A program made the position numbers and the translations under genes. Shown here piece after piece: positions 1,168-52,162 of a stretch of DNA of 64,000 nucleotides. Source of the stretch: Promethearchaeota archaeon Loki_b31. GTDB taxonomy: Archaea; Asgardarchaeota; Lokiarchaeia; Sigyniarchaeales; SOKP01. Below the pieces are notes generated by a model. It was not told the origin of the DNA. It worked only from the letters and a program-made list of their open reading frames with translations, and did not search any database. The DNA lies in NCBI GenBank assembly GCA_005222975.1, contig NJBI01000007.1, positions 23,752 through 87,751 of the forward strand. The letters run 5' to 3'. How positions within the stretch are numbered: position 1 is the first letter of the stretch; each line of letters opens with the position of its first letter.

Positions 1168-1208
1168 TCTAGATTTTCATTTAAAATCGTTAAGAAGGTG
1201 TTTTTTTT

Positions 1209-2270
1209 ACGAGTGAAATTATTCCGTCCTACGCTTATACATATATTAAAATCGATTATTTAAAACCATTAATAATTGATGATGACACTTTACTAAAACT
1301 TAAAAGAATCTACGATATTGATGATTTCATGGAATCTATTAGACTTTATTATCCTAATTTAGATTTTAAAGAAAATACTATTGAAGATATTGAAGTTGCT
1401 CTTAAAAATAATTACATTAAGCTAATTGGTAAAATTTTACATTATTCACCCCAAAACATGAGAATATTCTTAAGAAATTATCTCATGAAATTTGAAATAC
1501 AAAATCTCAAACAAATAATCATCAGTTTAATTTTAGGAATTAATCAAGAAGAAAAAAGAAAACACATTAATTTTTTAGTTGAAGAATATTTAGATAACAC
1601 GGAATTCATTGAAGATTTGCTTAAATTTACTTCTTTAGATGAAATACAATTATTTCTTAAAAGAACTAAATACAATATAGCTATTAGAGAAGGTATTCTT
1701 TACTATAAGAAAAATAAAGAAATTTTTATTCTGGAAGCTTTTTTAGATCAATTATATTATAAGCAACTTATAATACAACTGGAAAATTTAAATAGAAAAG
1801 AGAAAACAATGATATCGTTGTTTGTGAAATACAAAACTGAAATTTATAATATAAATGTGATTTATAGGGGAATAAAAAATAAAATTGAACCAAAATTATT
1901 ATCTCAATTTCTTGTAAATAATTATTTATTCCTAGATGAAAGTAAATTAGAACATTTGTTAAATCTTGATAATATTGATGAATTTATATCAGTTATTAAA
2001 GAATATTTGAAGAATATTAAGGAAATAAAACCATTTTTTATCAAGCTAAAAATTAATCAAAAGCACTTAATTAGGTCAATTGAACAATTTTATATAACTT
2101 ATTATTTTAAGAAATTTAAGATTAAAATTGACGACATTGATTTTTTCACCATTTACAAAATTTTAGAAATACTTATAAAAAAAGAAAAAGAAATACGATT
2201 TGATATTTTACCAAAAGTAATTAAAATCCTTCACTATAAGTTTAAAGCATTAAAAACGCAGAAATTTTAA
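1209..2270 (+). CDS. atpC: A/V-type ATP synthase subunit C (AC39/d family)
   Basis: KFEIQNLK, LEAFLDQLYY, EIYNINVIYRG and EKEIR motifs plus operon position; frame stays open upstream of ATG 1329 to ACG 1209 and includes a subunit-C-like SYAY N-terminal motif. Confidence 0.85.
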   Translation, partial: TSEIIPSYAYTYIKIDYLKPLIIDDDTLLKLKRIYDIDDFMESIRLYYPNLDFKENTIEDIEVALKNNYIKLIGKILHYSPQNMRIFLRNYLMKFEIQNLKQIIISLILGINQEEKRKHINFLVEEYLDNTEFIEDLLKFTSLDEIQLFLKRTKYNIAIREGILYYKKNKEIFILEAFLDQLYYKQLIIQLENLNRKEKTMISLFVKYKTEIYNINVIYRGIKNKIEPKLLSQFLVNNYLFLDESKLEHLLNLDNIDEFISVIKEYLKNIKEIKPFFIKLKINQKHLIRSIEQFYITYYFKKFKIKIDDIDFFTIYKILEILIKKEKEIRFDILPKVIKILHYKFKALKTQKF

Positions 2271-2951: not shown

Positions 2952-2985
2952 CAAGAGATGATCGGCCATTAGTGAAGGAAACGAC

Positions 2986-3690
2986 GTGAAAGAGAGATTT
3001 GGAAAACTAAGTTTGTATTTAATAAATCAAGCTGAAAATGAGATAAAGAAGATCAATCAACAATCCCTTTTTCAAATGGCAGAAGTTAGAAAAAAAGCTA
3101 GGGAAAGAACTTCAGAAAGCTCTTTAAAATTGAAAGCGCATTTTAACGAAACATACAATAAACTATTAAATAATTCTCTATCTTCTTATCTCTTGAAAAT
3201 TAAAGAAGAAGTATTGAAATCAAAAAACAAGTTAATGTTAGAACTTATTTCAGATTTAAAAGACTTAATAAAAGACAAAATAAAAAATAATTATTCGAGC
3301 TACATTATCCTTTTACTAAAAAATCTTGAAAATATCAAGCATTTTGTAGATAAACCACCGGAGATTATCATTCACTTAAATTCAATAGATTTTAAATATT
3401 TCAGCAATAATATGGAAAAGATTGAAAGTATATTAAGAAATAAAGTAAATTTAATCAAGTCAAAAGAAGAATTTACGGGAGGTTTTAAGTGTGTAATTAT
3501 GACCGGACATTTATCTTACGATTATACGATTAAAAATCAATTAAAGAAGAGCACATCGATTATAGAAATTGAGTTTTCAAAGATTTTTTCTGACTCCGAG
3601 CCTGATATTAAAGCTCTAGAAAATAATTATATACAATTTATCAAAAATCAAAAATTAGCTGTAAACGAATATTTAAAGAAATATGAATGA
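2986..3690 (+). CDS. atpE: A/V-type ATP synthase subunit E
   Basis: N-terminal coiled coil then FTGGF...YDYTI C-terminal domain motif; lies between F and A. Confidence 0.82.
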   Translation: MKERFGKLSLYLINQAENEIKKINQQSLFQMAEVRKKARERTSESSLKLKAHFNETYNKLLNNSLSSYLLKIKEEVLKSKNKLMLELISDLKDLIKDKIKNNYSSYIILLLKNLENIKHFVDKPPEIIIHLNSIDFKYFSNNMEKIESILRNKVNLIKSKEEFTGGFKCVIMTGHLSYDYTIKNQLKKSTSIIEIEFSKIFSDSEPDIKALENNYIQFIKNQKLAVNEYLKKYE

Positions 3691-5524: not shown

Positions 5525-6912
5525 GCGTAATTTATAGAAAAATAAAACAAATTGTTGGACCTTTAATAATTATAGATAATAGACACGATGTACAATATGG
5601 TGAAATCGTTAAAATCCATTCTGATGATGGAAAAGAACGCACAGGTCAAGTCGTAAAAATGGATGAAAAGATAATAACAATTGAAGTATTTGAAGATACA
5701 GCTGGAATTTCTTCAGAAAATTCTACAATTACTTTTACTGAAGATTCTTTTAAGATAAAAATTTCAAGTGATATGATTGGAAGGGTTTTTAACTCCTTAG
5801 GAAAACCTATTGATATTAATACGAAACAAGTGTTAGATTCAGACATTTTTACCGAAATCGAACGAGATATAAACGGTTTACCAATTAATCCTTTTGCAAG
5901 AGAATATCCAACGCAAGTCATCCAAACGGGAATATCGGTAATAGACGGTCTTTTTACCTTAATAAGAGGACAAAAACTCCCAATATTTAGTGGTCAAGGA
6001 TTACCCCATAATCTATTAGCTGCTCAAATTGTTACTCAAGCAAAAGTTTTGACAGAAGAACCATTCTTAATAATTTTTTGTGGAATTGGAATTATCCAAG
6101 ATGAAGCGATTTTTTTTATGAATCGTTTTAAAGAAAGTGGAAACATACAAAATATCATTTCTTTTATCAATTTTGCCGACGATCCAATAATGGAAAGACT
6201 AATAATTCCGCGAGTAGCATTAACTACTGCTGAATATTTTGCATTTGAAAAAGATATGCATGTTCTCGTTGTTTTAATAGACATGACAAATTATGCTGAA
6301 GCTTTAAGAGAACTAAGCGCCGCCAAAGAAGAAATTCCTAGCAGAAAGGGGTATCCGGGTTATTTATACACTGATTTCGCATCGCTCTATGAAAGAACTG
6401 GTAAAATTAAAGGTAAAAAAGGGACAATAACCCAATTACCGATTTTGACGATGCCTAACGACGATATTTCTCATCCAATTCCAGATACAACAGGGTACAT
6501 AACTGAAGGTCAGTTAGTTCTAAATCGTAACTTGGATAAAAAGGGAATATATCCCCCTTTTGAAGTTTTAGCGTCTATATCACGACTTATGAAAGATTCA
6601 ATAGGTAAAAATACTACTAGGGAAGACCATGCTGATGTTAACTCTCAGCTATTAGCATCGTATTCAGCTGCACTTGAAGTTAGAGATCTTATATCGATTG
6701 TAGGGGAAGATGGATTAAACTTAAATCAAAAAGCGTTACTAAGATTTGGTAACTTTTTCGAACAAAAATTTTTAAATCAAGGGTACACAGAGGAAAGGGA
6801 TTTTTCAACGACTCTTAATATTGCATGGCAAGCTTTATCTAATTTGCCCAAAAATCAATTATTTAGAATACAGGACGATTTTGTAGATAAGTACTACATT
6901 GAAGAGGTGTAA
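5521..6912 (+). CDS. atpB: A/V-type ATP synthase subunit B
   Basis: [52 protein letters not shown] arginine finger. Confidence 0.97.
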
Positions 6913-6918
6913 GTATCA

Positions 6919-7557
6919 ATTAGTTTTAGAGAGTTTAAGCCCACAAAAACAAATTTAATGAGTCTACAGAAAAGGTTAACTTTTGCTGTTAAAGGCGAAA
7001 ATTTTCTAAAATTTAAATTAGAACAAATAATATTTGAGATAAAAAAAAATTGGGGTAATTATTTAAAACAACGTGAAATCTTTTTAAAATTATATAAAGA
7101 CACTATGATTAAACTTAATCAAACTTATAAAGAAATGGGTAAACGAGAATTTAATTCGATTAGTAAATTAAGTAAAATCCAATATAATCCAAAGATTGCT
7201 GTAAACTTTATAAAAAGGATTGGAACATTAGTGCCAATAATAGATTATGAACTGATACGGGAAGAATTGCTTCCAGCTTACTCTTTTGAAAATACATCTC
7301 ATTATCTTGATGATTTGATTATTCTTTTAATAAAATTTTTTCAAAGCCTCATAATTGTTGCACAGTCTGAAGACCTATTGTTGAAACTCTCTCAAACTTT
7401 TAAAAAAATAAATCGTAGGATAAATGGTCTGAAGAATGTAATAATTCCTGAACTACAAATAGACATTAAAAAAATTAAAGCTGTATTAGAAGAAATTGAA
7501 AGAGAAAATTATGTTCGTTTGAAAAATACAAAAAATTTGATTATAAAAAATGCTTAA
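6919..7557 (+). CDS. atpD: A/V-type ATP synthase subunit D
   Basis: KINRRINGLKNVIIP and LEEIERENYVRLK motifs; the N-terminal KPT motif lies upstream of ATG 6958, implying a start at ATT 6919. Confidence 0.93.
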   Translation: MSFREFKPTKTNLMSLQKRLTFAVKGENFLKFKLEQIIFEIKKNWGNYLKQREIFLKLYKDTMIKLNQTYKEMGKREFNSISKLSKIQYNPKIAVNFIKRIGTLVPIIDYELIREELLPAYSFENTSHYLDDLIILLIKFFQSLIIVAQSEDLLLKLSQTFKKINRRINGLKNVIIPELQIDIKKIKAVLEEIERENYVRLKNTKNLIIKNA

Positions 7558-13044: not shown

Positions 13045-13953
13045 TTGGTATTAAGAGAATCTTCTGCCGCGGGAATTTATTATCCACGATCCAAATCGGA
13101 TTTAATTAAAATGTTAGAAGAATCCTTTTTAGATAAAGAATTTGGACCAAGTGAAAAATTCGACTCTTTAAACCAAAAAACAAGAACAATATTTGGTGGA
13201 TTATCTCCACACGGGGGTTATGTTTATTCTGGTAGCTGTGCGGCGCATACATATTTACATTTGTTTAAGGAAAAAATCCCCGATACTGTTGTAATATTAG
13301 CCACTGAAGATTTAGGATATAACAACATTGCTTTATTAGAAGTAGGCGAATGGGAAACTCCGTTAGGTAACCTAGAGGTTGATAGTGATTTGTCTCAAAA
13401 ATTGCTAAAAACGAGTAGCATGGTTAAAGGAGATGATTCTGCTTTTGTTGGATTTCCCTTTGGAAGAGAGTATTATATTGATGTACAATTGCCGTTTATT
13501 AAATATTGTGCGTTAAAGAGAGAGATAAAAATCTTGCCAATTATTATTTCTATAATGGATTATGATAAATTAGATAAATTATCCAAAGATATCGCGAGAG
13601 TAGTCCAATCCTTAAACAAAGATATAGTATTTATAGGTTCTACAGATATGAGTCATATTATTTGTAAAGATGAATTTACTGCTGGATTTAAAGTGCAAGA
13701 AATGCTCTTAGCAGATAAATCTGTAATCAAATCGTTTACAAAATTTAACCCAAAGAAGACTTTTTTTGATGCGTCAAGATTTTCTATAAAAGGGCCACAA
13801 ATTCTTACCACATTAATGCTAATATGTAAAAGGATGGGTGCAAACGAATGTAGAGCATTAAATTATTACACTAGTTATGACAAGGGTGGAGGATCTGGTC
13901 CATGTAAATATAATGCAGGATATTTTTCGGGGATAATTATAAAAGATATTTAA
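13045..13953 (+). CDS. MEMO1/AmrB family protein, degenerate paralog
   Basis: AGIYYP, PHGGYVYSG, WETPLG, STDMSH present; other metal-site motifs altered. Confidence 0.85.
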   Translation: MVLRESSAAGIYYPRSKSDLIKMLEESFLDKEFGPSEKFDSLNQKTRTIFGGLSPHGGYVYSGSCAAHTYLHLFKEKIPDTVVILATEDLGYNNIALLEVGEWETPLGNLEVDSDLSQKLLKTSSMVKGDDSAFVGFPFGREYYIDVQLPFIKYCALKREIKILPIIISIMDYDKLDKLSKDIARVVQSLNKDIVFIGSTDMSHIICKDEFTAGFKVQEMLLADKSVIKSFTKFNPKKTFFDASRFSIKGPQILTTLMLICKRMGANECRALNYYTSYDKGGGSGPCKYNAGYFSGIIIKDI

Positions 13954-26674: not shown

Positions 26675-27874
26675 TTATAACGATAAAATAATTCTATTTT
26701 GAGCTTTTAACATATCCTCCATAATTAGTTCCATAGCGTCTTTAATATCTGGCACACTATCTGGAATACTTCTCTTAGCATTGATACTTGCCATTAACAC
26801 TTCGTTTAGTCCTCGTAGAATCATATCTGGGGAATACCAAGGTCTTTTAGAGGCCCACCATTGCTGACACGAATGGATCCCTCGATCTAATAAATTTCTC
26901 GCATTGTCAAAAATTGATTTTTTTTCATCATCCATGCTATTTCGATATTTATACGATAAATGGATTAAAGTCAGAGCATACATAAAAAACCGGTGTTGTT
27001 CAAAGTGAATTTCATTATTAGGATCAAACCAAAGAGGAAAAGGAACATCATGAGCTAAATCATAAGGCATAGTTGACCAAGAAGATGCTCGTGGATTCTG
27101 TATATTGATTTTAGGGAACTTATCTATGATTTCTGAAACATTACATAACTTAACATCATTGCGATGAGGAAGAGCATCAAAAAGGGGTATTAAAAAGTTT
27201 TTTATAGCATGTTTTACATGGTGTCCAAAAGTTTCTCCATCCATTGCTAGAATAACATAATAATCCTCTGAAGTATGTTTGTAATATAATCGATTTATAA
27301 ACTCATCAACAGTATTAATTTTATCAAATGCACAATCAATAGAGATATAATCATCTCTAAATATTAAATTTAAATTGTTAGGATGCTGTGATATAAAAGT
27401 TGTAGGAAATTCGGGTAAAATATTTGCTATACCACTCATAATGATCCAATCATAACCCATTTCTTCTACAACCGAAAATACCTCTTCAGAAACAGCCATT
27501 TCAGGAGGAAAAAAACCTCTCGGTTTAAATAATTCTCCAAAAAATTTTTGATTCGTTTCATAATTTAATTCAATTTGTCGTCTAATTTCTGGCGATGGAA
27601 TAAGCGGTAATAGAGGATGGAATTTTCCAGAACCAGTAAATTCTACTTGACCTCTAGATGCAAGTGTTGTTAGCTCTTCTATGATATCCATATATCCAAA
27701 ATCATTTAATTGTTCAGTCAAAGTACCATTAATATTCAAAGTTATTTTCGCATAGGGATGATTTCTTAAAGCTTCAATTATTGGTCTGTAAGATTCATTT
27801 GCAATTTGTTTGATTACAAAGGGTATTTGCACTGGTGGTTGATAAATATGAAATAAAAACGCAAAATAAATAAT
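26675..27874 (-). CDS. GH57 family glycoside hydrolase (short form)
   Basis: FHIYQPP (upstream of the track's GTG), EFTGSGKFHPLLPLI, GFFPPEMA (nucleophile Glu), AMDGETFGHH (acid/base Asp), SSW, HSCQQWW. Confidence 0.9.
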   Translation of the reverse strand: MIYFAFLFHIYQPPVQIPFVIKQIANESYRPIIEALRNHPYAKITLNINGTLTEQLNDFGYMDIIEELTTLASRGQVEFTGSGKFHPLLPLIPSPEIRRQIELNYETNQKFFGELFKPRGFFPPEMAVSEEVFSVVEEMGYDWIIMSGIANILPEFPTTFISQHPNNLNLIFRDDYISIDCAFDKINTVDEFINRLYYKHTSEDYYVILAMDGETFGHHVKHAIKNFLIPLFDALPHRNDVKLCNVSEIIDKFPKINIQNPRASSWSTMPYDLAHDVPFPLWFDPNNEIHFEQHRFFMYALTLIHLSYKYRNSMDDEKKSIFDNARNLLDRGIHSCQQWWASKRPWYSPDMILRGLNEVLMASINAKRSIPDSVPDIKDAMELIMEDMLKAQNRIILSL

Positions 27875-27906
27875 AAATTAATCTCCCTTTTTTTATTTTT
27901 ATTTAG

Positions 27907-27977
27907 TTTAATTATATATTAGTACCAAGATCAAGAGTTTTATCTCGGATTTGATTATCATCACTAATTTTGCTATT
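27907..27977. repeat. 71-bp direct repeat, copy B: actual 3' end of the nucleotidyltransferase gene
   Basis: Matches 26579..26649; encodes NSKISDDNQIRDKTLDLGTNI*. Confidence 0.95.
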
Positions 27978-29060
27978 TGGGGCAACTATCGCGTTATGGA
28001 GAACAACATTATCGCCTATGTCACAATTATTACAAACGATCGAACTATCAATATGACAACCAGCTCCGATATTTACATTGTCCCAGATAACGCTTTTCTC
28101 GATTACCGTATCCTCTCCGATTTGGACATGGGCTCCAATTGAACATAACGGTTTTATTTTTACTCGATTATGTAATTCTACAAATTCCCCAAAACAAGAC
28201 GGTTTTTCGATAGATACATTTTGTCCCGAATTAATAACGCCCACTACATAAATTCCATCGTATTCCTCACCATTTGGGGTGATCGGCCACGAATATTTAC
28301 GTAATAAGTCCCAATTTGCCCACAGATAAGTTTGAGCGTTTCCACAGTCAAGCCAATAATAATTTTTAACAAATCCATATAAATCGTAATTATTATCGAG
28401 GAGATAAGGGAAAACTTCCCCCCCAAAATCCATTAAGCCCGTTTCTTGTAAGATACTACCAATCTCTTTATTAAAACAATAAATTCCTGTATTTATTATG
28501 TTTGTATGTAAAAATAAATCGGTTCTTTGAGCCATACTACTTAAATACAGTTCCATAGGAGCAGGTTTTTCTAAGAAGAGATAAATTTTTCTATTTTGAT
28601 CGAGAAGCACAACTCCATATTGACTCGTATGACTTTCGCTGGTTTTCATGGAAATAGTAGCAGTTCCCATTTTTTCCGAGTGGAAATCCATAAACGCCTT
28701 CATTGGGAGATTTGTTACGATATCTGCCATGCTAACAACAATCTTTTCGGAATCAATATTATCAGTTAATAATCGGTAAGCGTCGGCCGTACCCTTACTC
28801 TCTTGAATTACGCATTCAAGTTCAACATCTCCCAACTTATCGGGGGTCCATATTTTTTCTACATATTCTTTTAATTCTTGACCCATATAAGCTAAAGCAA
28901 GAATTATGTGCTTAATATCCGCAAATATTAAGTGAGCAATAGAATAATCCACCATAGCTTTATTAGTTACTTTTACAAGCGGTTTTGGAATGAGTGATGT
29001 TAAAGGCATCAACCTCGACCCCTTTCCTCCAGCTAATATTATGGCAGACCATTCTCGCAT
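27912..29060 (-). CDS. sugar-1-phosphate nucleotidyltransferase (NDP-sugar synthase) with C-terminal left-handed beta-helix
   Basis: ILAGGKGSRLMPLT..PKPL, GTAD, YGVV, FLEKP, INTGIY, YWLDCG; hexapeptide repeats. Confidence 0.92.
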   Translation of the reverse strand: MREWSAIILAGGKGSRLMPLTSLIPKPLVKVTNKAMVDYSIAHLIFADIKHIILALAYMGQELKEYVEKIWTPDKLGDVELECVIQESKGTADAYRLLTDNIDSEKIVVSMADIVTNLPMKAFMDFHSEKMGTATISMKTSESHTSQYGVVLLDQNRKIYLFLEKPAPMELYLSSMAQRTDLFLHTNIINTGIYCFNKEIGSILQETGLMDFGGEVFPYLLDNNYDLYGFVKNYYWLDCGNAQTYLWANWDLLRKYSWPITPNGEEYDGIYVVGVINSGQNVSIEKPSCFGEFVELHNRVKIKPLCSIGAHVQIGEDTVIEKSVIWDNVNIGAGCHIDSSIVCNNCDIGDNVVLHNAIVAPNSKISDDNQIRDKTLDLGTNI

Positions 29061-29208
29061 GTTGAATCTCTCACAAAATTACTCATTCATTATATGTTGA
29101 GTAATAGATATAAATCTAGTTTTAATTGAAATTTAAATATTGAGATTATTTACAAAAATGAATATTTGAGTTACTAAAGCAAAAGACAAGAATATGAAAT
29201 ATAGATTA

Positions 29209-30459
29209 TTATTGGTTTAGATATTTGTCTAACGATTTCCTAACTTCTGCTGCCGCTATATGGGGTAATTTTCTTGCAACTCTCATGTCATCTGCCATTT
29301 CTGCCCCACCAATAATTTCGTGTGGAATTATGTCAACAAACATATGGAAATCCGCATCATAACCATACGGACAACAGTTAAATAAAATATTTCGGTTCTT
29401 ATCAATTGAAGTATCATCTAAAGCTTGGAAGACCATCTTAATCGCGTTTGCAAAATCGTTGATTTGGTTTATTTTCAATTGAGTAAACCGTCTAATATGC
29501 TCGTGTGGATACGCGCGAATGTGATAATTTCTTACAGGACTTCCCGTTGTATAAAAAGTCCAAAATTCAGTCTTTAAAATTATCCGATCACTATCCCCAT
29601 GAGTGGTTTGACATAAACGACAATCATCCCCCATTTCTTTAAATGCTTCGAGGTATCCTTCTAATCGACTTCCATGACCATCCATGTTTAAATCGATATA
29701 TACCTGACCGTGAATACGAGGTTGAGAACCACCAACCTTAGTTCCTATGTTAAAAAACGGTGAAACGGGAATATCGTAATAGTCTTTCTCAATAGCTTCT
29801 TGGACACAATAGAGAATTGCCGCTTTCATAGATAAAAAAATACCAGCTAAAACATCTTCTGGAATTAAATTAAAACACAAGGCAGGATAAAAATGCCTTG
29901 AGAGCGTAACTAAATTAATGCCCCGTGAGAGCTTCAAATGAGAAGGCATATTGTCCTTAATCTCTTTTTCAATATCAGAATCCACTATTCGTGCCATAGA
30001 AGGGTATCTATTTATTAATGTCAGTGCTTTGCAGGAATCAGGAATTCGTTCTATTTGATGCGGTGTTTCTAAAAAAGGATCGTCTCTCTTTTTTTCGTCT
30101 TCAGTAATAATTATTGTAAAGCCATCACCAATCTGTTTCCCCCAATCATCGTATATTGGTTTTCCCTCTGTTACCGATGTAAAAACATCCTTATACTTGG
30201 ATTTTATTTTCCTTGAACAATCATAAAATTGGTTTTTCTCTTCTTCAGTTTTAAAACCTTTAGGTCTTTTTCCACGAATAGGGCTTAAATAAGCGTAATG
30301 ACCGTAGTATCTTATTCGTTCTTTTCTAAGGCCAAAATCCTTAGTTTGAATGATAACTGTAGATAAAGGGTCCCATCTCTTAATTGGTACATCATAGCTG
30401 GTTTTACCTTTAAAATTTTCCTTATTTATTATGCCCCATTCCATAAAATCGGGAAACAT
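29209..30459 (-). CDS. GalT/HIT-family nucleotidyltransferase (galactose-1-P uridylyltransferase or ADP-glucose phosphorylase-like)
   Basis: RGKRP, NRYP, FFNIG..VGGSQPRIHGQ, CRLC, FHMFVDIIP, GGAE; may start at ATT 30474. Confidence 0.8.
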   Translation of the reverse strand: MFPDFMEWGIINKENFKGKTSYDVPIKRWDPLSTVIIQTKDFGLRKERIRYYGHYAYLSPIRGKRPKGFKTEEEKNQFYDCSRKIKSKYKDVFTSVTEGKPIYDDWGKQIGDGFTIIITEDEKKRDDPFLETPHQIERIPDSCKALTLINRYPSMARIVDSDIEKEIKDNMPSHLKLSRGINLVTLSRHFYPALCFNLIPEDVLAGIFLSMKAAILYCVQEAIEKDYYDIPVSPFFNIGTKVGGSQPRIHGQVYIDLNMDGHGSRLEGYLEAFKEMGDDCRLCQTTHGDSDRIILKTEFWTFYTTGSPVRNYHIRAYPHEHIRRFTQLKINQINDFANAIKMVFQALDDTSIDKNRNILFNCCPYGYDADFHMFVDIIPHEIIGGAEMADDMRVARKLPHIAAAEVRKSLDKYLNQ

Positions 30460-30811
30460 TCTTTTGATTGAAATTATATCAACACCTATAGTTTCTTGAT
30501 CACATTTTGACTAGATTATACTATTATTAAATATTTAATTTATAACTTCATAGTAATTTATCACTTTATTCGCGTATTAATTCATCAAAATTAATTAATC
30601 AAAAACATATTTATATAAATTACAATAATGTTGAGTAAATGTTAAAATTTGTTCAATCTAACAATACTCATTTATTATACAAAAATGTACTGAATCTATT
30701 ATATTTTAATTCATTTTCAAACCAGTAAATCAAAAAAAGAAAAAAAAATTAAGAACTCTATTCTGCCAATGGTTAAATTAAATATTTTACGATACAAGTT
30801 ATTAAATGTTG

Positions 30812-48805: not shown

Positions 48806-50992
48806 ATGAGCGAAATACGGATTCACCTACCTATAGTCTTCCATTTTCATCAACCAGTGGATAATTTCAGTTTTGTCATTGAGGATGCCTATGAAAAGTC
48901 ATATAAACCCTTAATTGAGAATATTTTCAAAAATCTTGAGGTAAAGATTACTCTTCACTTTTCAGGAAATTTATTGGAGTGGTTCTTAGATAATAAGCCA
49001 AATTTTATAAAAATGTTAAAAGTCATGGCAAAAAGAGGGCAGATTGAGATAATTGGCGGGGGTTATTACGAACCTATTTTTGCTATTATACCTAATAGGG
49101 ACAAAATAGCCCAAATAAAGAAGCTATCTGACTTAATAAAAAAAGAGTTTGGATTAGATGTTAAGGGGGCTTGGTTATCAGAAAGAGTGTGGGAACCAAA
49201 TTATCCCTCGTTTTTGAGTGAAGTTGGATTGAAATATACAATCGTTGATGATAATCATTTCAGATCTACAGGAATTACGGAGAAAGATACCCTTTATTCT
49301 TATGTTACTGAAGATGAGGGGAAAACGCTTAGAATATTTCTTATCAATGAAAAATTAAGATATTTGGCCCCTTGGAAGCCTACATATATGTCAATTGAAT
49401 ATTTGAAAAATGTTGCGGATGAAAAAGGTGATAGGTGCGTTTTATTCATGTCTGATGCGGAAAAAATGGGCGTTTGGGGCACCACACACCAAATATGTTA
49501 CATTCAAGGTCATGAAGAGGGAGACGAGGGTAAACCTTTTATCCCAGCGTTTTTTGAACAAATTGTAAATAATAAATGGATTAAATCGATCACTCTCTCG
49601 GAGTATATGGAAAAATTTCCAGCAAGAGGATTAATATATCTACCTACAGCAAGTTACGATAAAATGGAGGAATGGGTTTTACCAACTAAAGAAAGGAAAG
49701 CTTTTAAGAAAATTAGAAAAATTCTTAGAGACGATCCCAAAAAACAGGAGGAATACTTATTTTTAAAGGGAGGATTTTGGCGATATTTCTTGGTTAAATA
49801 TCCAGAATCTAATAACATGCACAAGAAAATGCTTTATGTGCGAGAAAAACTCATTCAAGTTGAGAAACAGGTAAATAAAATAAAGAACGAGGAAAATAAA
49901 AGCGAAATTAAAACTAGGATAGCGGAAGCTTGGGAAGAAATATATAAAGCGCAATGTAACGATAGTTACTGGCATGGATTATTCGGTGGTGTATATTTGC
50001 AATTTTTACGGTTTTCCGTATATGCTCATCTTATTAACGCTGAAAATATTATAGATAGCTTGAATTCAGAATTCTACTCGATTGCAAATAAATATATCTC
50101 AATTACACCCATAGATTTCAATAAAGACAGTAAAATGGATGTTATAATAGAATCTAATATATTAAACCTATATATAAACCCCTCGGATGGAGGGACTATA
50201 TTTGAATTAGACTATAAGCCAAAATCTTATAACCTTTTAAATACTTTAACTAGGTGGCCTGAAGCGTATCACGACAACGAAGACGACGAAATAGATAAAG
50301 ACGAGGTTATGGTTGATCGTTATAAGAAAAGCATGTTGCGAATTAGATTTTTTCAAATCGATATATCGCTTGAACAACTTGAAACTGACCATTTTTACGA
50401 ATTTGGAACATTTACTGACGGGGAATTTAAAGTTATTAGAAACGAAAAAGATGGGAAATCTGCTATATTAGAATTAGAACACTTTGGAACGGTAAAAGAT
50501 CCAGAATCAGGTGAGTGCTACCCTTGTAGGATCCTTAAGATAATCGAGGTTGAGGAAAATCAGATTGTTATTACAATAAAAGGTAATTTTCAAAAAATTT
50601 CTGGAGAAGAAGAGGTGTTAAAAAGGATACTAGAAAAATTATATTTAGGCGTAGACCTTCCTTTCTTTTTCAATGGTGATCCCAATAAATTTGAGTGGGA
50701 AAGTAACCAAGTGTTGTTTCTAGAAGGGAAAAAAAGTTCACTATTAAAACCATTTGAATACTTCGGTCACCACTTTAAAGCTTACGACGAATCTTATAAG
50801 TTAAACTTTGAATATTCGTTATCTAGTCAAATTAAAGCAGATACAGATACCATAAAAATATATAAATTTCCGATAGTTGCATACGCGTTCACTGACGAGG
50901 GATATAAAAAGATATACCAAGGGATAAATGTTCTACCTCGATTTAAACTTAAGAAAGAATTCGAGTTTAATTTAATAATTAGCATTTACTAA
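48806..50992 (+). CDS. GH57 alpha-amylase / 4-alpha-glucanotransferase
   Basis: HFHQP, GGGYYEP, WLSERVWEP, DAEKMG, SYDKMEEW, GGFWRYFLVKYPESN, AQCNDSYWHGLFGGVY. Confidence 0.94.
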   Translation: MSEIRIHLPIVFHFHQPVDNFSFVIEDAYEKSYKPLIENIFKNLEVKITLHFSGNLLEWFLDNKPNFIKMLKVMAKRGQIEIIGGGYYEPIFAIIPNRDKIAQIKKLSDLIKKEFGLDVKGAWLSERVWEPNYPSFLSEVGLKYTIVDDNHFRSTGITEKDTLYSYVTEDEGKTLRIFLINEKLRYLAPWKPTYMSIEYLKNVADEKGDRCVLFMSDAEKMGVWGTTHQICYIQGHEEGDEGKPFIPAFFEQIVNNKWIKSITLSEYMEKFPARGLIYLPTASYDKMEEWVLPTKERKAFKKIRKILRDDPKKQEEYLFLKGGFWRYFLVKYPESNNMHKKMLYVREKLIQVEKQVNKIKNEENKSEIKTRIAEAWEEIYKAQCNDSYWHGLFGGVYLQFLRFSVYAHLINAENIIDSLNSEFYSIANKYISITPIDFNKDSKMDVIIESNILNLYINPSDGGTIFELDYKPKSYNLLNTLTRWPEAYHDNEDDEIDKDEVMVDRYKKSMLRIRFFQIDISLEQLETDHFYEFGTFTDGEFKVIRNEKDGKSAILELEHFGTVKDPESGECYPCRILKIIEVEENQIVITIKGNFQKISGEEEVLKRILEKLYLGVDLPFFFNGDPNKFEWESNQVLFLEGKKSSLLKPFEYFGHHFKAYDESYKLNFEYSLSSQIKADTDTIKIYKFPIVAYAFTDEGYKKIYQGINVLPRFKLKKEFEFNLIISIY

Positions 50993-51268: not shown

Positions 51269-51448
51269 ATTTATATTCAGCCAAATCCATTGGCTAAAAA
51301 AGGTAAGAGCTTCCCCCTTCTAACTTTTAAAGTTAATTAAGAATAATAAAATTGAATTATCTGAGCTTAAAACGCGATTAAAGTAAAATTTATTAATTGA
51401 CATAGATTTATTTTTTTATTAAACTACTATTGTAAGAAGGGATAAATT

Positions 51449-52162
51449 ATTTCTATCAAATGGAGAAATAGAGGATTTATAATAACTCTTATTTTATCTA
51501 TGTTTATTTTAATTTTACTAGCACCTAGTATGTTTAATTTTAATGAGTCTTTTCAAATAGGAAGATATACTGAAGAAGCAGATTTTAATAATAGCTTTAC
51601 TGATGGAACAGTGGGAGTTAGAGTAACATTATACTTAGAATATCAAAATCAAGAAATTTATAATGTCAGAACCACAATTATTCCGATTTCTAGTGGTGAA
51701 ATTGTGAACAACGGTCTTATATCTATAAAGTTGTATTATTACACACAAAGCGTATCAAGATTATACATAGATTCAACTTGGGACCCCCCAAGTAGTGATT
51801 TTAGTCATTCTACAAGAGTTTCCCTAGCCAAGGATTATAACATTACAATTAATGGTATTGCCGAAGTACAATGTGTTGTTAATGAAGTTCTTGTCAATGA
51901 AACAATTTCATATACTTTAACCTTTATAGTACCATTAGGTTTAAAAGAATTTGCCGACTTGGATCTACAGATTTACGTAATATTTTATTTATATTTATTA
52001 TTAATTCCTCTTACGCCATTTATTTTATTATATATATTTAAGCCTTTATTTGGAATTAAGATTGATGAGGAAACTCGAAAAAAGGATGAACTGTTTCTTA
52101 GTTATTTTGGTAGAACAGATAAAGAAAAACAAAAAGAAAACACTATTAATAACTCTGAATAA
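51449..52162 (+). CDS. secreted/membrane-anchored protein with N-terminal signal and C-terminal TM helix
   Basis: Extending from ATG 51500 to ATT 51449 completes a signal peptide (SIKWRNRG + hydrophobic core); beta-rich ectodomain with N-x-S/T sites; C-terminal TM. Confidence 0.75.
   Translation: MSIKWRNRGFIITLILSMFILILLAPSMFNFNESFQIGRYTEEADFNNSFTDGTVGVRVTLYLEYQNQEIYNVRTTIIPISSGEIVNNGLISIKLYYYTQSVSRLYIDSTWDPPSSDFSHSTRVSLAKDYNITINGIAEVQCVVNEVLVNETISYTLTFIVPLGLKEFADLDLQIYVIFYLYLLLIPLTPFILLYIFKPLFGIKIDEETRKKDELFLSYFGRTDKEKQKENTINNSE

Follow-up and report, generated by a model that had tools for sequence, protein, structure and literature searches.

Where does translation begin on a gene that has no canonical start codon ahead of its conserved N-terminus? 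The question is raised by a GH57 gene in a 64,000-nucleotide stretch of the genome of Promethearchaeota archaeon Loki_b31 (assembly GCA_005222975.1, contig NJBI01000007.1, positions 23,752 to 87,751), which was analysed as a whole and is called the window below. The results point towards start codons that differ from ATG by one base (near-cognate codons) and that are placed by a Shine-Dalgarno (SD) sequence. With a probability of roughly 0.8, the GH57 gene, the other genes flagged in the window and at least about 50 more across the genome would start at SD-placed AUU, AUA, AUC or ACG codons, as judged from the layout of their start regions and from comparison with relatives. Relatives are cited by our handles for genomes (G), loci (L), contigs (C) and genera (g).

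Start region of the GH57 gene

The features of the locus, with positions counted from the first letter of the window, are as follows.

26675..27874, minus strand: GH57 coding sequence from candidate start ATT 27874 (or ATT 27871) to the stop codon, an open frame of 400 codons, PF03065
26675-27832, minus strand: the call obtained with canonical codons only, from the first of them, GTG 27832
27869..27874, minus strand: paired in-frame ATT codons (27874, 27871), candidate GH57 starts, equivalent to the GTT GTT (Val-Val) of the orthologues
27878..27880, minus strand: TAA that closes the GH57 frame upstream, in frame by direct reading
27882..27887, minus strand: SD-like GGGAGA with a GGAG core, the core fitting the genome SD consensus GGAGGTGAT

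On the minus strand the region reads AAAGGGAGAT TAA TTT ATT ATT TAT TTT GCG TTT TTA TTT CAT ATT TAT CAA CCA CCA GTG. Direct reading of the GH57 frame found no ATG, GTG or TTG between the TAA at 27880-27878 and the GTG at 27832, and the stretch from stop to GTG translates as (F)IIYFAFLFHIYQPP. The conserved YFAFLFHIYQPP strand of GH57 is encoded upstream of that GTG, and the FHIYQPP (HxxQP) region is kept only with a start upstream of it. Membership of the family is supported by a Pfam search (PF03065, E = 5.8e-39, residues 23-256), and GTG 27832 itself lacks an SD (SD score 1). The first-pass annotation, made from the letters of the window, had placed FHIYQPP upstream of the first GTG, had described the frame as closed by the TAA and free of ATG, GTG and TTG, and had measured 7 nt between GGGAGA and ATT 27874; all of this agrees with the minus strand as read here, and ATT 27871 is added as an equal candidate. 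When the spacing, d, is counted with the SD aligned to GGAGGTGAT, it is 6 for ATT 27874 and 9 for ATT 27871. The latter value lies at the modal spacing of near-cognate sites in this genome (d = 8-9), a fit at least as good as that of ATT 27874, and GH57 could start at either codon.

The history of the start was followed through relatives. GH57 matches (E <= 0.001) occur in 31 of the 31 related genomes searched, the source genome included. Matches of 66-93% identity were taken as the orthologues, and their alignments begin at residue 2-3 of the extended protein. Of eleven orthologues examined, ten begin ATG (G/A)xx GTx (T/C)AT TT(T/C) GCx TT(T/C), that is, M-V/T-V-Y/H-F-A-F, and the eleventh (L012) has GTG at the position of the ATG. 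Orthologues read ATG GTT GTT TAT TTT GCG where Loki_b31 reads TTT ATT ATT TAT TTT GCG; their ATG aligns with TTT 27877-27875, one codon upstream of ATT 27874, and a start at ATT 27874 would make the protein one residue shorter than its orthologues. Because the orthologues keep ATG or GTG at this position, the ATG was lost in this genome only, with both Val codons changed to ATT.

Such a loss could also mean that GH57 has been newly disabled or strongly down-regulated, its frame being intact for lack of time to decay, whatever the status of the other sites, which may be real. The ATT is indeed not conserved, eleven orthologues having ATG (10) or GTG (L012), the SD amounts to a 4-nt core, and the larger GH57 gene at 48806-50992 could compensate. 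Against this stand 400 stop-free codons in a genome of 31% GC and a dN/dS of 0.13 relative to the 93%-identical orthologue of G005, indicative of purifying selection; a relative-rate count gave 4 private amino-acid changes in this lineage and 9 in its sister. Both ATT codons are also within working distance of the SD-like motif, and conserved, essential genes genome-wide use the same geometry. A recent disabling of the gene is therefore considered improbable. A pseudogene is not supported by the same figures, with neither stops nor frameshifts in the frame.

A contig of the Logan assembly (run SRR14872665) is identical to this genome in the GH57 start region, which makes an assembly error at the start unlikely. 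The gene caller applied to that contig placed the start at the downstream GTG, and so, for GH57, the earlier suspicion that gene callers would mis-annotate such genes holds in a public gene call. In the orthologue of G005 (L002), the closest relative, GGGAGA lies 6 nt from an in-frame ATT AGT and 15 nt from the ATG downstream of that ATT; the GH57 gene of G005 may thus also start at an ATT, three codons upstream of its ATG.

Putative near-cognate start sites elsewhere in the window

The same arrangement recurs at five further genes, which brings the putative near-cognate starts to 6 of about 52 genes in the window.

1209..2270, plus strand: atpC, A/V-ATPase subunit C (AC39 family), predicted start ACG 1209; PF01992, conserved genus-wide
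2968..3690, plus strand: open reading frame (ORF) of 240 aa between atpF and atpA, predicted start ATT 2968; the sixth site, missed in the first pass
6919..7557, plus strand: atpD, A/V-ATPase subunit D, predicted start ATT 6919; PF01813, at the start position of its orthologues
29209..30474, minus strand: conserved 421-aa protein, family unassigned, predicted start ATT 30474; adjoins the NTP-transferase gene and GH57
51446..52162, plus strand: genus-specific membrane protein, predicted start ATT 51446 or ATT 51449; weak SD GAAGGGA at 51436-51442

Three of these are subunit genes of an ATPase operon with the order K-C-?-F-(E-like)-A-B-D-I. At atpC, ACG AGT at 1209 lies 8 nt after the SD GAAGGTG (1194-1200; aligned d = 9), with an in-frame TAA at 1191-1193, and the first 20 residues of the match to PF01992 (AC39) precede the first ATG, at 1329. 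At least 13 genomes of the genus keep ACG AGT behind GGTGAT or AAGGTG, and the position of the ACG is occupied by ATG in L035, L038, L039 and L041 and by TTG in L037. In three genomes of 93-95% identity (window 1200-1208, L023 and L024, respectively), the poly-T spacer between SD and ACG measures 8, 6 and 7 nt. Since its length varies, the GTG inside the SD shifts frame while the ACG stays in frame, and the homopolymer may tune the distance from SD to start.

For the ORF at 2968, ATT AGT follows the SD GAGATGATC (2955-2963) at an aligned spacing of 8, with a TGA at 2959-2961, and the genus keeps ATT AGY at this spacing. In several relatives (L026, L028, L029, L031 and L033) both candidate positions lack a canonical start, and GTG 2986, downstream of the ATT, is ATT or GTT in relatives. 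A Pfam search of the 240-aa product returned no match; it is probably the stalk (E-like) subunit of the ATPase. At atpD, ATT AGT at 6919 lies 9 nt after GAGGTG (6904-6909; aligned d = 10), and the TAA at 6910-6912 is the stop codon of atpB. ATT AGT TTT AGA behind GAGGTG-TAA is found in at least nine genomes of the genus, the position of the ATT being ATG in L059, L060, L061, L066, L069, L070 and L071 and ATA in L062. The coding stretch for KPTKTNL, a conserved motif of AtpD, lies upstream of the first ATG, at 6958. The next gene, atpI, has GTG 7558 directly after the atpD TAA and an in-frame ATG 7573 beyond a run of A10 as possible starts, neither with a well-spaced SD.

On the minus strand, ATT TCA at 30474 lies 8 nt after AGGTG (30487-30483; aligned d = 9). 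ATT TCR behind GGTG or GGGTG, with a spacer of 7-8 nt, is conserved in at least ten genomes of the genus, and the ATG at 30459, five codons downstream of the ATT, is ATA or ATT in L194, L197 and L198. The 421-aa protein carries the His-rich motifs RIHGQVY and DFHMFVDIIPH, and a Pfam search with it gave no match. The weakest of the six sites is that of the membrane protein, where ATT TCT at 51449 is preceded by ATT 51446 and by TAA 51443-51445. The basic SIKWRNRGF segment, encoded upstream of the first ATG (51500), is kept at the protein level in orthologues, in which the start position is GTG (L177) or ATT (L178). The first-pass annotation had listed 6919, 51449, 1209 and, as a possible case, 30474 as sharing the geometry of GH57 and as having Ser for a second residue. 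Sequence, upstream stop and SD are as it described at all four, with a weak SD at 51449, and the second codons are AGT, TCT, AGT and TCA.

Gene-caller output would have the downstream canonical codons (GTG 27832, ATG 1329, ATG 6958 and so on) as the true starts and the stretches upstream of them as untranslated leaders that happen to be open, and in each case a canonical codon does exist downstream. Those stretches nevertheless encode conserved protein, namely YFAFLFHIYQPP in GH57, 20 residues of AC39 in AtpC, KPTKTNL in AtpD and the zinc knuckle of the initiation factor aIF1, described below. The downstream codons moreover lack an SD and are not conserved, as at ATG 30459 and GTG 2986. Untranslated leaders are for these reasons an exceedingly improbable explanation.

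The GH57 gene may be part of a sugar or glycogen cluster (window 26675-30474, minus strand) together with an NTP-transferase and the 421-aa protein. The second GH57 gene, at 48806-50992, encodes 728 aa with domains of the 4-alpha-glucanotransferase type.

27915-29060, minus strand: NTP-transferase with a hexapeptide-repeat domain, between GH57 and the 421-aa gene

Near-cognate codons across the genome and in relatives

A scan for SD-spaced ATT, ATC, ATA and ACG, of the kind that the first-pass annotation had proposed, was applied to the whole assembly (3.52 Mb, 99 contigs, 31.5% GC). The SD consensus, GGAGGTGA(T), was derived from motifs enriched upstream of first canonical starts, and ATG codons peak at an aligned spacing of 8 (range 6-12). 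For ORFs of at least 120 codons, SD matches of at least 5 bases were collected from the segment that precedes the first canonical codon, back to the in-frame stop, and an SD site was kept only if no frame offered a canonical start within 16 nt, which left 172 sites. The share of ATT, ATA, ATC and ACG codons at these sites was as follows.

Spacing 8, in frame: 34/56
Spacing 9, in frame: 23/59
Spacings 14-24, in frame: 63/544 (background of about 12%)
Spacings 8-9, out of frame: 10/156 (6%)

The excess is thus specific to frame and spacing: 57/115 at d = 8-9 compared with 63/544 at far spacings (p = 3.5e-18) and with 10/156 out of frame (p = 2.8e-16). Enrichment is not seen for AAG or AGG, and the AT-rich control codons AAT, TAT, TTT, TTA and AAA are flat or depleted.

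The scan yields 74 candidate genes (ATT 29, ATA 24, ATC 10, ACG 8, CTG 3), 56 of them at d = 8-9, and about 45-55 of the 74 are above chance expectation. For comparison, there are 412 strongly SD-led canonical starts, comprising 286 ATG, 87 TTG and 39 GTG, figures that also bear out the earlier remark that TTG and GTG starts are frequent; the near-cognate excess corresponds to roughly 11% of strongly SD-led starts. Only three of the six window sites pass the strict SD filter, and the true total is for this reason probably near 100 genes (2-4%). A broad scan over the first 100 codons of all ORFs gave an excess of about 130, a loose upper bound that includes many internal SD-like motifs. SD length is 5.50 at near-cognate and 5.41 at ATG starts. 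Of the candidates, 18% have Ser as second residue; the figure is 22% for canonical SD-led genes, where Ser is the commonest, compared with 6.3% in the proteome; since canonical SD-led starts share the bias, Ser at the window sites would reflect a general N-terminal preference. Among the candidates are proteins with N-termini that resemble, as judged by eye, uS4, uS8 and Rab-like GTPases. A codon-usage frame test found frame 0 best both for the N-terminal extensions and for non-coding controls, the in-frame segments being stop-free by construction.

Within operons, ribosomes that have just terminated might reinitiate nearby with lower stringency because they are already on the mRNA (translational coupling). 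Two window sites have the proximity that this requires, the distance from the stop of the preceding gene being 6 nt for ATT 6919 (atpB) and 16 nt for ATT 2968 (atpF). GH57 and atpC, on the other hand, are 37 and 41 nt downstream of the preceding stop, and genome-wide an upstream same-strand ORF ends within 30 nt of 20 of 70 candidates, compared with 92 of 184 SD-led ATG starts. Half of the candidates are more than 100 nt from the upstream ORF end. Reinitiation was rejected as a general route on the proximity count, and as an account of these starts it is very unlikely.

Relatives were sampled in the same way. G026, with a complete 4.36-Mb genome from another family, the same 31% GC and similar SD usage, gave 4/21 against a background of 12/106 (800 kb read), and the difference between Loki_b31 and G026 has p = 0.016; the near absence of a signal there speaks against an artefact of the method or of AT-richness. 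The other relatives show a signal, with counts of 7/22 against 11/106 in G008, of the same genus, 7/28 against 10/128 in G027 (53% GC), and 4/10 against 4/49 in G024 (400 kb read).

SD-placed near-cognate starts thus agree with several separate observations. The spacing from the SD is like that of canonical starts; no canonical codon precedes the conserved N-terminus; the homologous position is canonical in orthologues of atpC, atpD and GH57; and the excess depends on frame and spacing. There are also points that weigh against this interpretation. At GH57 itself the SD is weak, with the GGAG core only, the two adjacent ATT codons are indistinguishable as starts, and the ATT is, by alignment, not conserved in relatives, which have ATG. 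The Logan contig may share a sample with this genome; it would then exclude a mistake of the assembler, but a variant of the strain would still be compatible with it. With a background of about 12% per in-frame codon, chance should account for about a quarter of the 74 candidates, and the comparison of lineages covers 400-800 kb samples of four relatives with small counts. The 3' end of the 16S rRNA was searched for in this assembly and not found; the anti-SD was consequently deduced from the SD consensus. Finally, the near-cognate starts described here are predicted from sequence.

Initiation factor aIF1, the initiator tRNA and start-codon stringency

If near-cognate codons are used this widely, the factors that select start codons become of interest, and the first-pass annotation had pointed to aIF1 and the initiator tRNA.

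Contig C88, frame start 29774 (locus L021:1450-1800), minus strand: aIF1 (SUI1), PF01253 match

The aIF1 gene reads TGA AAA AGG AGT ATT AAA GAA GAA GAC ATT TGT CCG GTA TGT, and its first canonical codon, number 44, comes only after the zinc knuckle. This knuckle, CPVC...CIC, aligns from residue 3 of M. jannaschii aIF1 (PDB 4MO0, E = 3e-23). Because no ATG, GTG or TTG precedes it, aIF1 must start at one of the two ATT codons. The same absence of a canonical codon before the knuckle is seen in 15 of the 15 genomes of the genus where aIF1 was found (14 congeners and Loki_b31), the congeners following the pattern TGA AAA ARG AGT ATT ... ATT TGT CCx xTx TGT. Other genera start aIF1 with ATA (g5), TTG (g2, g9) or ATG (g4, g8). 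A second aIF1 paralogue in the congeners G005 and G007 has the arrangement GAGGTG-N9-ATT. By comparison across the genus, the atpC ACG and the ATT codons of atpD, the E-like ORF, the 30474 gene and aIF1 appear to be old, genus-wide near-cognate starts, and that of GH57 appears recent.

A pattern search located the initiator tRNA on the minus strand of contig C55, at about 13130-13230 as counted on the reverse complement. Its anticodon is CAU, its anticodon stem contains three G:C pairs and A1:U72 is present, with no sign of altered decoding; an intron of about 29 nt interrupts the T loop. ARAGORN, run on the whole assembly, reported only 12-14 tRNAs, with no initiator among them; Rfam gave 23 tRNAs in the assembly, several with long insertions, and many tRNA genes seem to be interrupted at non-canonical positions.

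These observations bear on whether initiation in this lineage differs from that of other archaea at all. With ordinary machinery, any archaeon that uses SDs would start inefficiently at AUU, AUA or ACG, and drift from ATG to ATA or ATT would be tolerated in an AT-rich lineage of probably small population size, with neither relaxation nor regulatory use. The loss of the GH57 ATG only here, alongside G-to-A/T changes (GTT GTT to ATT ATT), fits this account, as do the standard look of the initiator tRNA, the good alignment of the aIF1 core with a characterised aIF1 and SDs that are no longer at near-cognate than at ATG starts (5.50 and 5.41). However, in G026, whose GC content is the same and whose SD usage is similar, there is little or no excess (4/21, background 11%), so that AT mutation pressure alone is insufficient. 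Several near-cognate starts, among them the ACG of atpC, which is not driven by AT pressure, are kept in at least 13 species although one mutation would give the ATG present in some relatives, and aIF1 keeps its ATT in all 15 genomes. We regard drift with unchanged machinery as possible but rather unlikely.

For the SD-placed near-cognate starts that we favour, the following course of events may be proposed. GH57 and the other flagged genes would be intact and expressed, and pairing of SD and anti-SD would set the start codon in the ribosomal P site. This codon would be a one-base variant of AUG, either AUU, AUA, AUC or ACG and rarely CUG, and the normal initiator Met-tRNA (CAU) would presumably decode it, with a protein that begins with Met. 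Translation from such starts is likely to be less efficient. The stringency of start-codon choice may be lowered at the level of the lineage, perhaps in connection with the near-cognate start of aIF1 itself, and synthesis of aIF1 from that start would create a feedback loop like those of bacterial infC and eukaryotic eIF1. The first-pass annotation had spoken of SD-driven initiation with relaxed start-codon fidelity in this lineage. Its first half is upheld by the scan excess, the orthologue positions, the conservation in the genus and the public call for GH57, and the relaxed fidelity has indirect support only, from the start of aIF1 and the much weaker signal in G026.

The arrangement of aIF1 resembles the autoregulatory designs of infC and eIF1, since aIF1 discriminates against AUU in Sulfolobus (PMC4705826, PMC6237735) and would start at ATT here. 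For an autoregulatory loop the gene has the weak start of its own that such a loop needs, and the feedback itself is an inference by analogy. A tentative extension, which we hold to be less likely than not, is that the genus runs a lowered, self-regulated stringency, in which aIF1 would be made from AUU in a feedback loop, conserved AUU, AUA, AUC and ACG starts would serve as a selectable dial on expression (for example, in A/V-ATPase stoichiometry), and the strength of the aIF1 start would track near-cognate frequency across genera. There is an apparent tie between a weak aIF1 start and near-cognate frequency (this genus and G024 compared with G026), drawn from too few data.

Bacteria are known to have near-cognate starts behind an SD. 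NCBI translation table 11 lists ATT, ATC, ATA and CTG as rare prokaryotic starts, and all four are shared with the candidates described here; ACG, which to our knowledge is outside that set, is a difference. Standard gene callers use only ATG, GTG and TTG, leading to truncated calls. In E. coli very few genes are known to have such starts, unlike Loki_b31, where they would be found in several percent of genes, including those for ATPase subunits and probable ribosomal proteins. One of the E. coli genes is infC, encoding IF3, for which an SD-led AUU start with autocontrol of a fidelity factor has been described (Butler et al. 1987, as cited in PMC4705826). The likeness lies in a near-cognate AUU behind an SD on the gene of a factor that rejects starts, here aIF1; unlike infC, aIF1/SUI1 is not homologous to IF3 and belongs to another domain of life.

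Eukaryotic eIF1 is autoregulated through a poor initiation context, and eIF1 and eIF5 tune non-AUG initiation (PMC4705826; Ivanov et al. 2010, as cited in PMC6237735). Here the factor is a homologous SUI1 protein with a weak start on its own mRNA, and the usable near-cognate codons correspond as well (AUU, AUA, AUC, ACG and CUG, not AAG or AGG). The eukaryotic system differs in that scanning is replaced here by SD positioning at an aligned spacing of 8-9 nt, and in that the weak element is the codon rather than its context. Among Asgard archaea, the AtubA tubulin gene of Kariarchaeaceae was given 'a rare ATT start codon' in a manual re-annotation (PMC13394414). As with GH57, the host is an Asgard archaeon, the ATT lies at a plausible distance from a ribosome-binding site and an N-terminal beta-strand is missing from the database protein; the lineage is another one, and AtubA was a single-gene case with no genome-wide or comparative claim (PMC13394414). 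The searchable literature held no genome-wide or comparative account for Asgard or other archaea, AtubA being the sole Asgard case found. What is new here is the scale, the genus-wide conservation, the use of ACG, the involvement of aIF1 and the contrast between related genera.

In these Asgard archaea, the public database models of a few percent of proteins would lack an N-terminal part. What is lost by truncation includes the first beta-strand and the HxYQP motif in GH57, at least 20 residues in subunit C of the ATPase and, in aIF1, the zinc knuckle. Models of this type underlie structural and biochemical studies of Asgard 'eukaryotic signature proteins', and one tubulin has already been corrected (PMC13394414). 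The differences between genera, with a strong signal here and hardly any in G026 at the same GC content, offer a natural comparison. Start-codon stringency under the control of eIF1 is a hallmark of eukaryotic initiation. With near-cognate starts predicted on aIF1, and conserved ones on housekeeping genes, in the archaea that are closest to eukaryotes, the origin of this control circuit becomes testable. If the lowered, self-regulated stringency proposed here is true, eIF1-style control, acting on SD-led mRNAs, would be present in archaeal relatives of eukaryotes.

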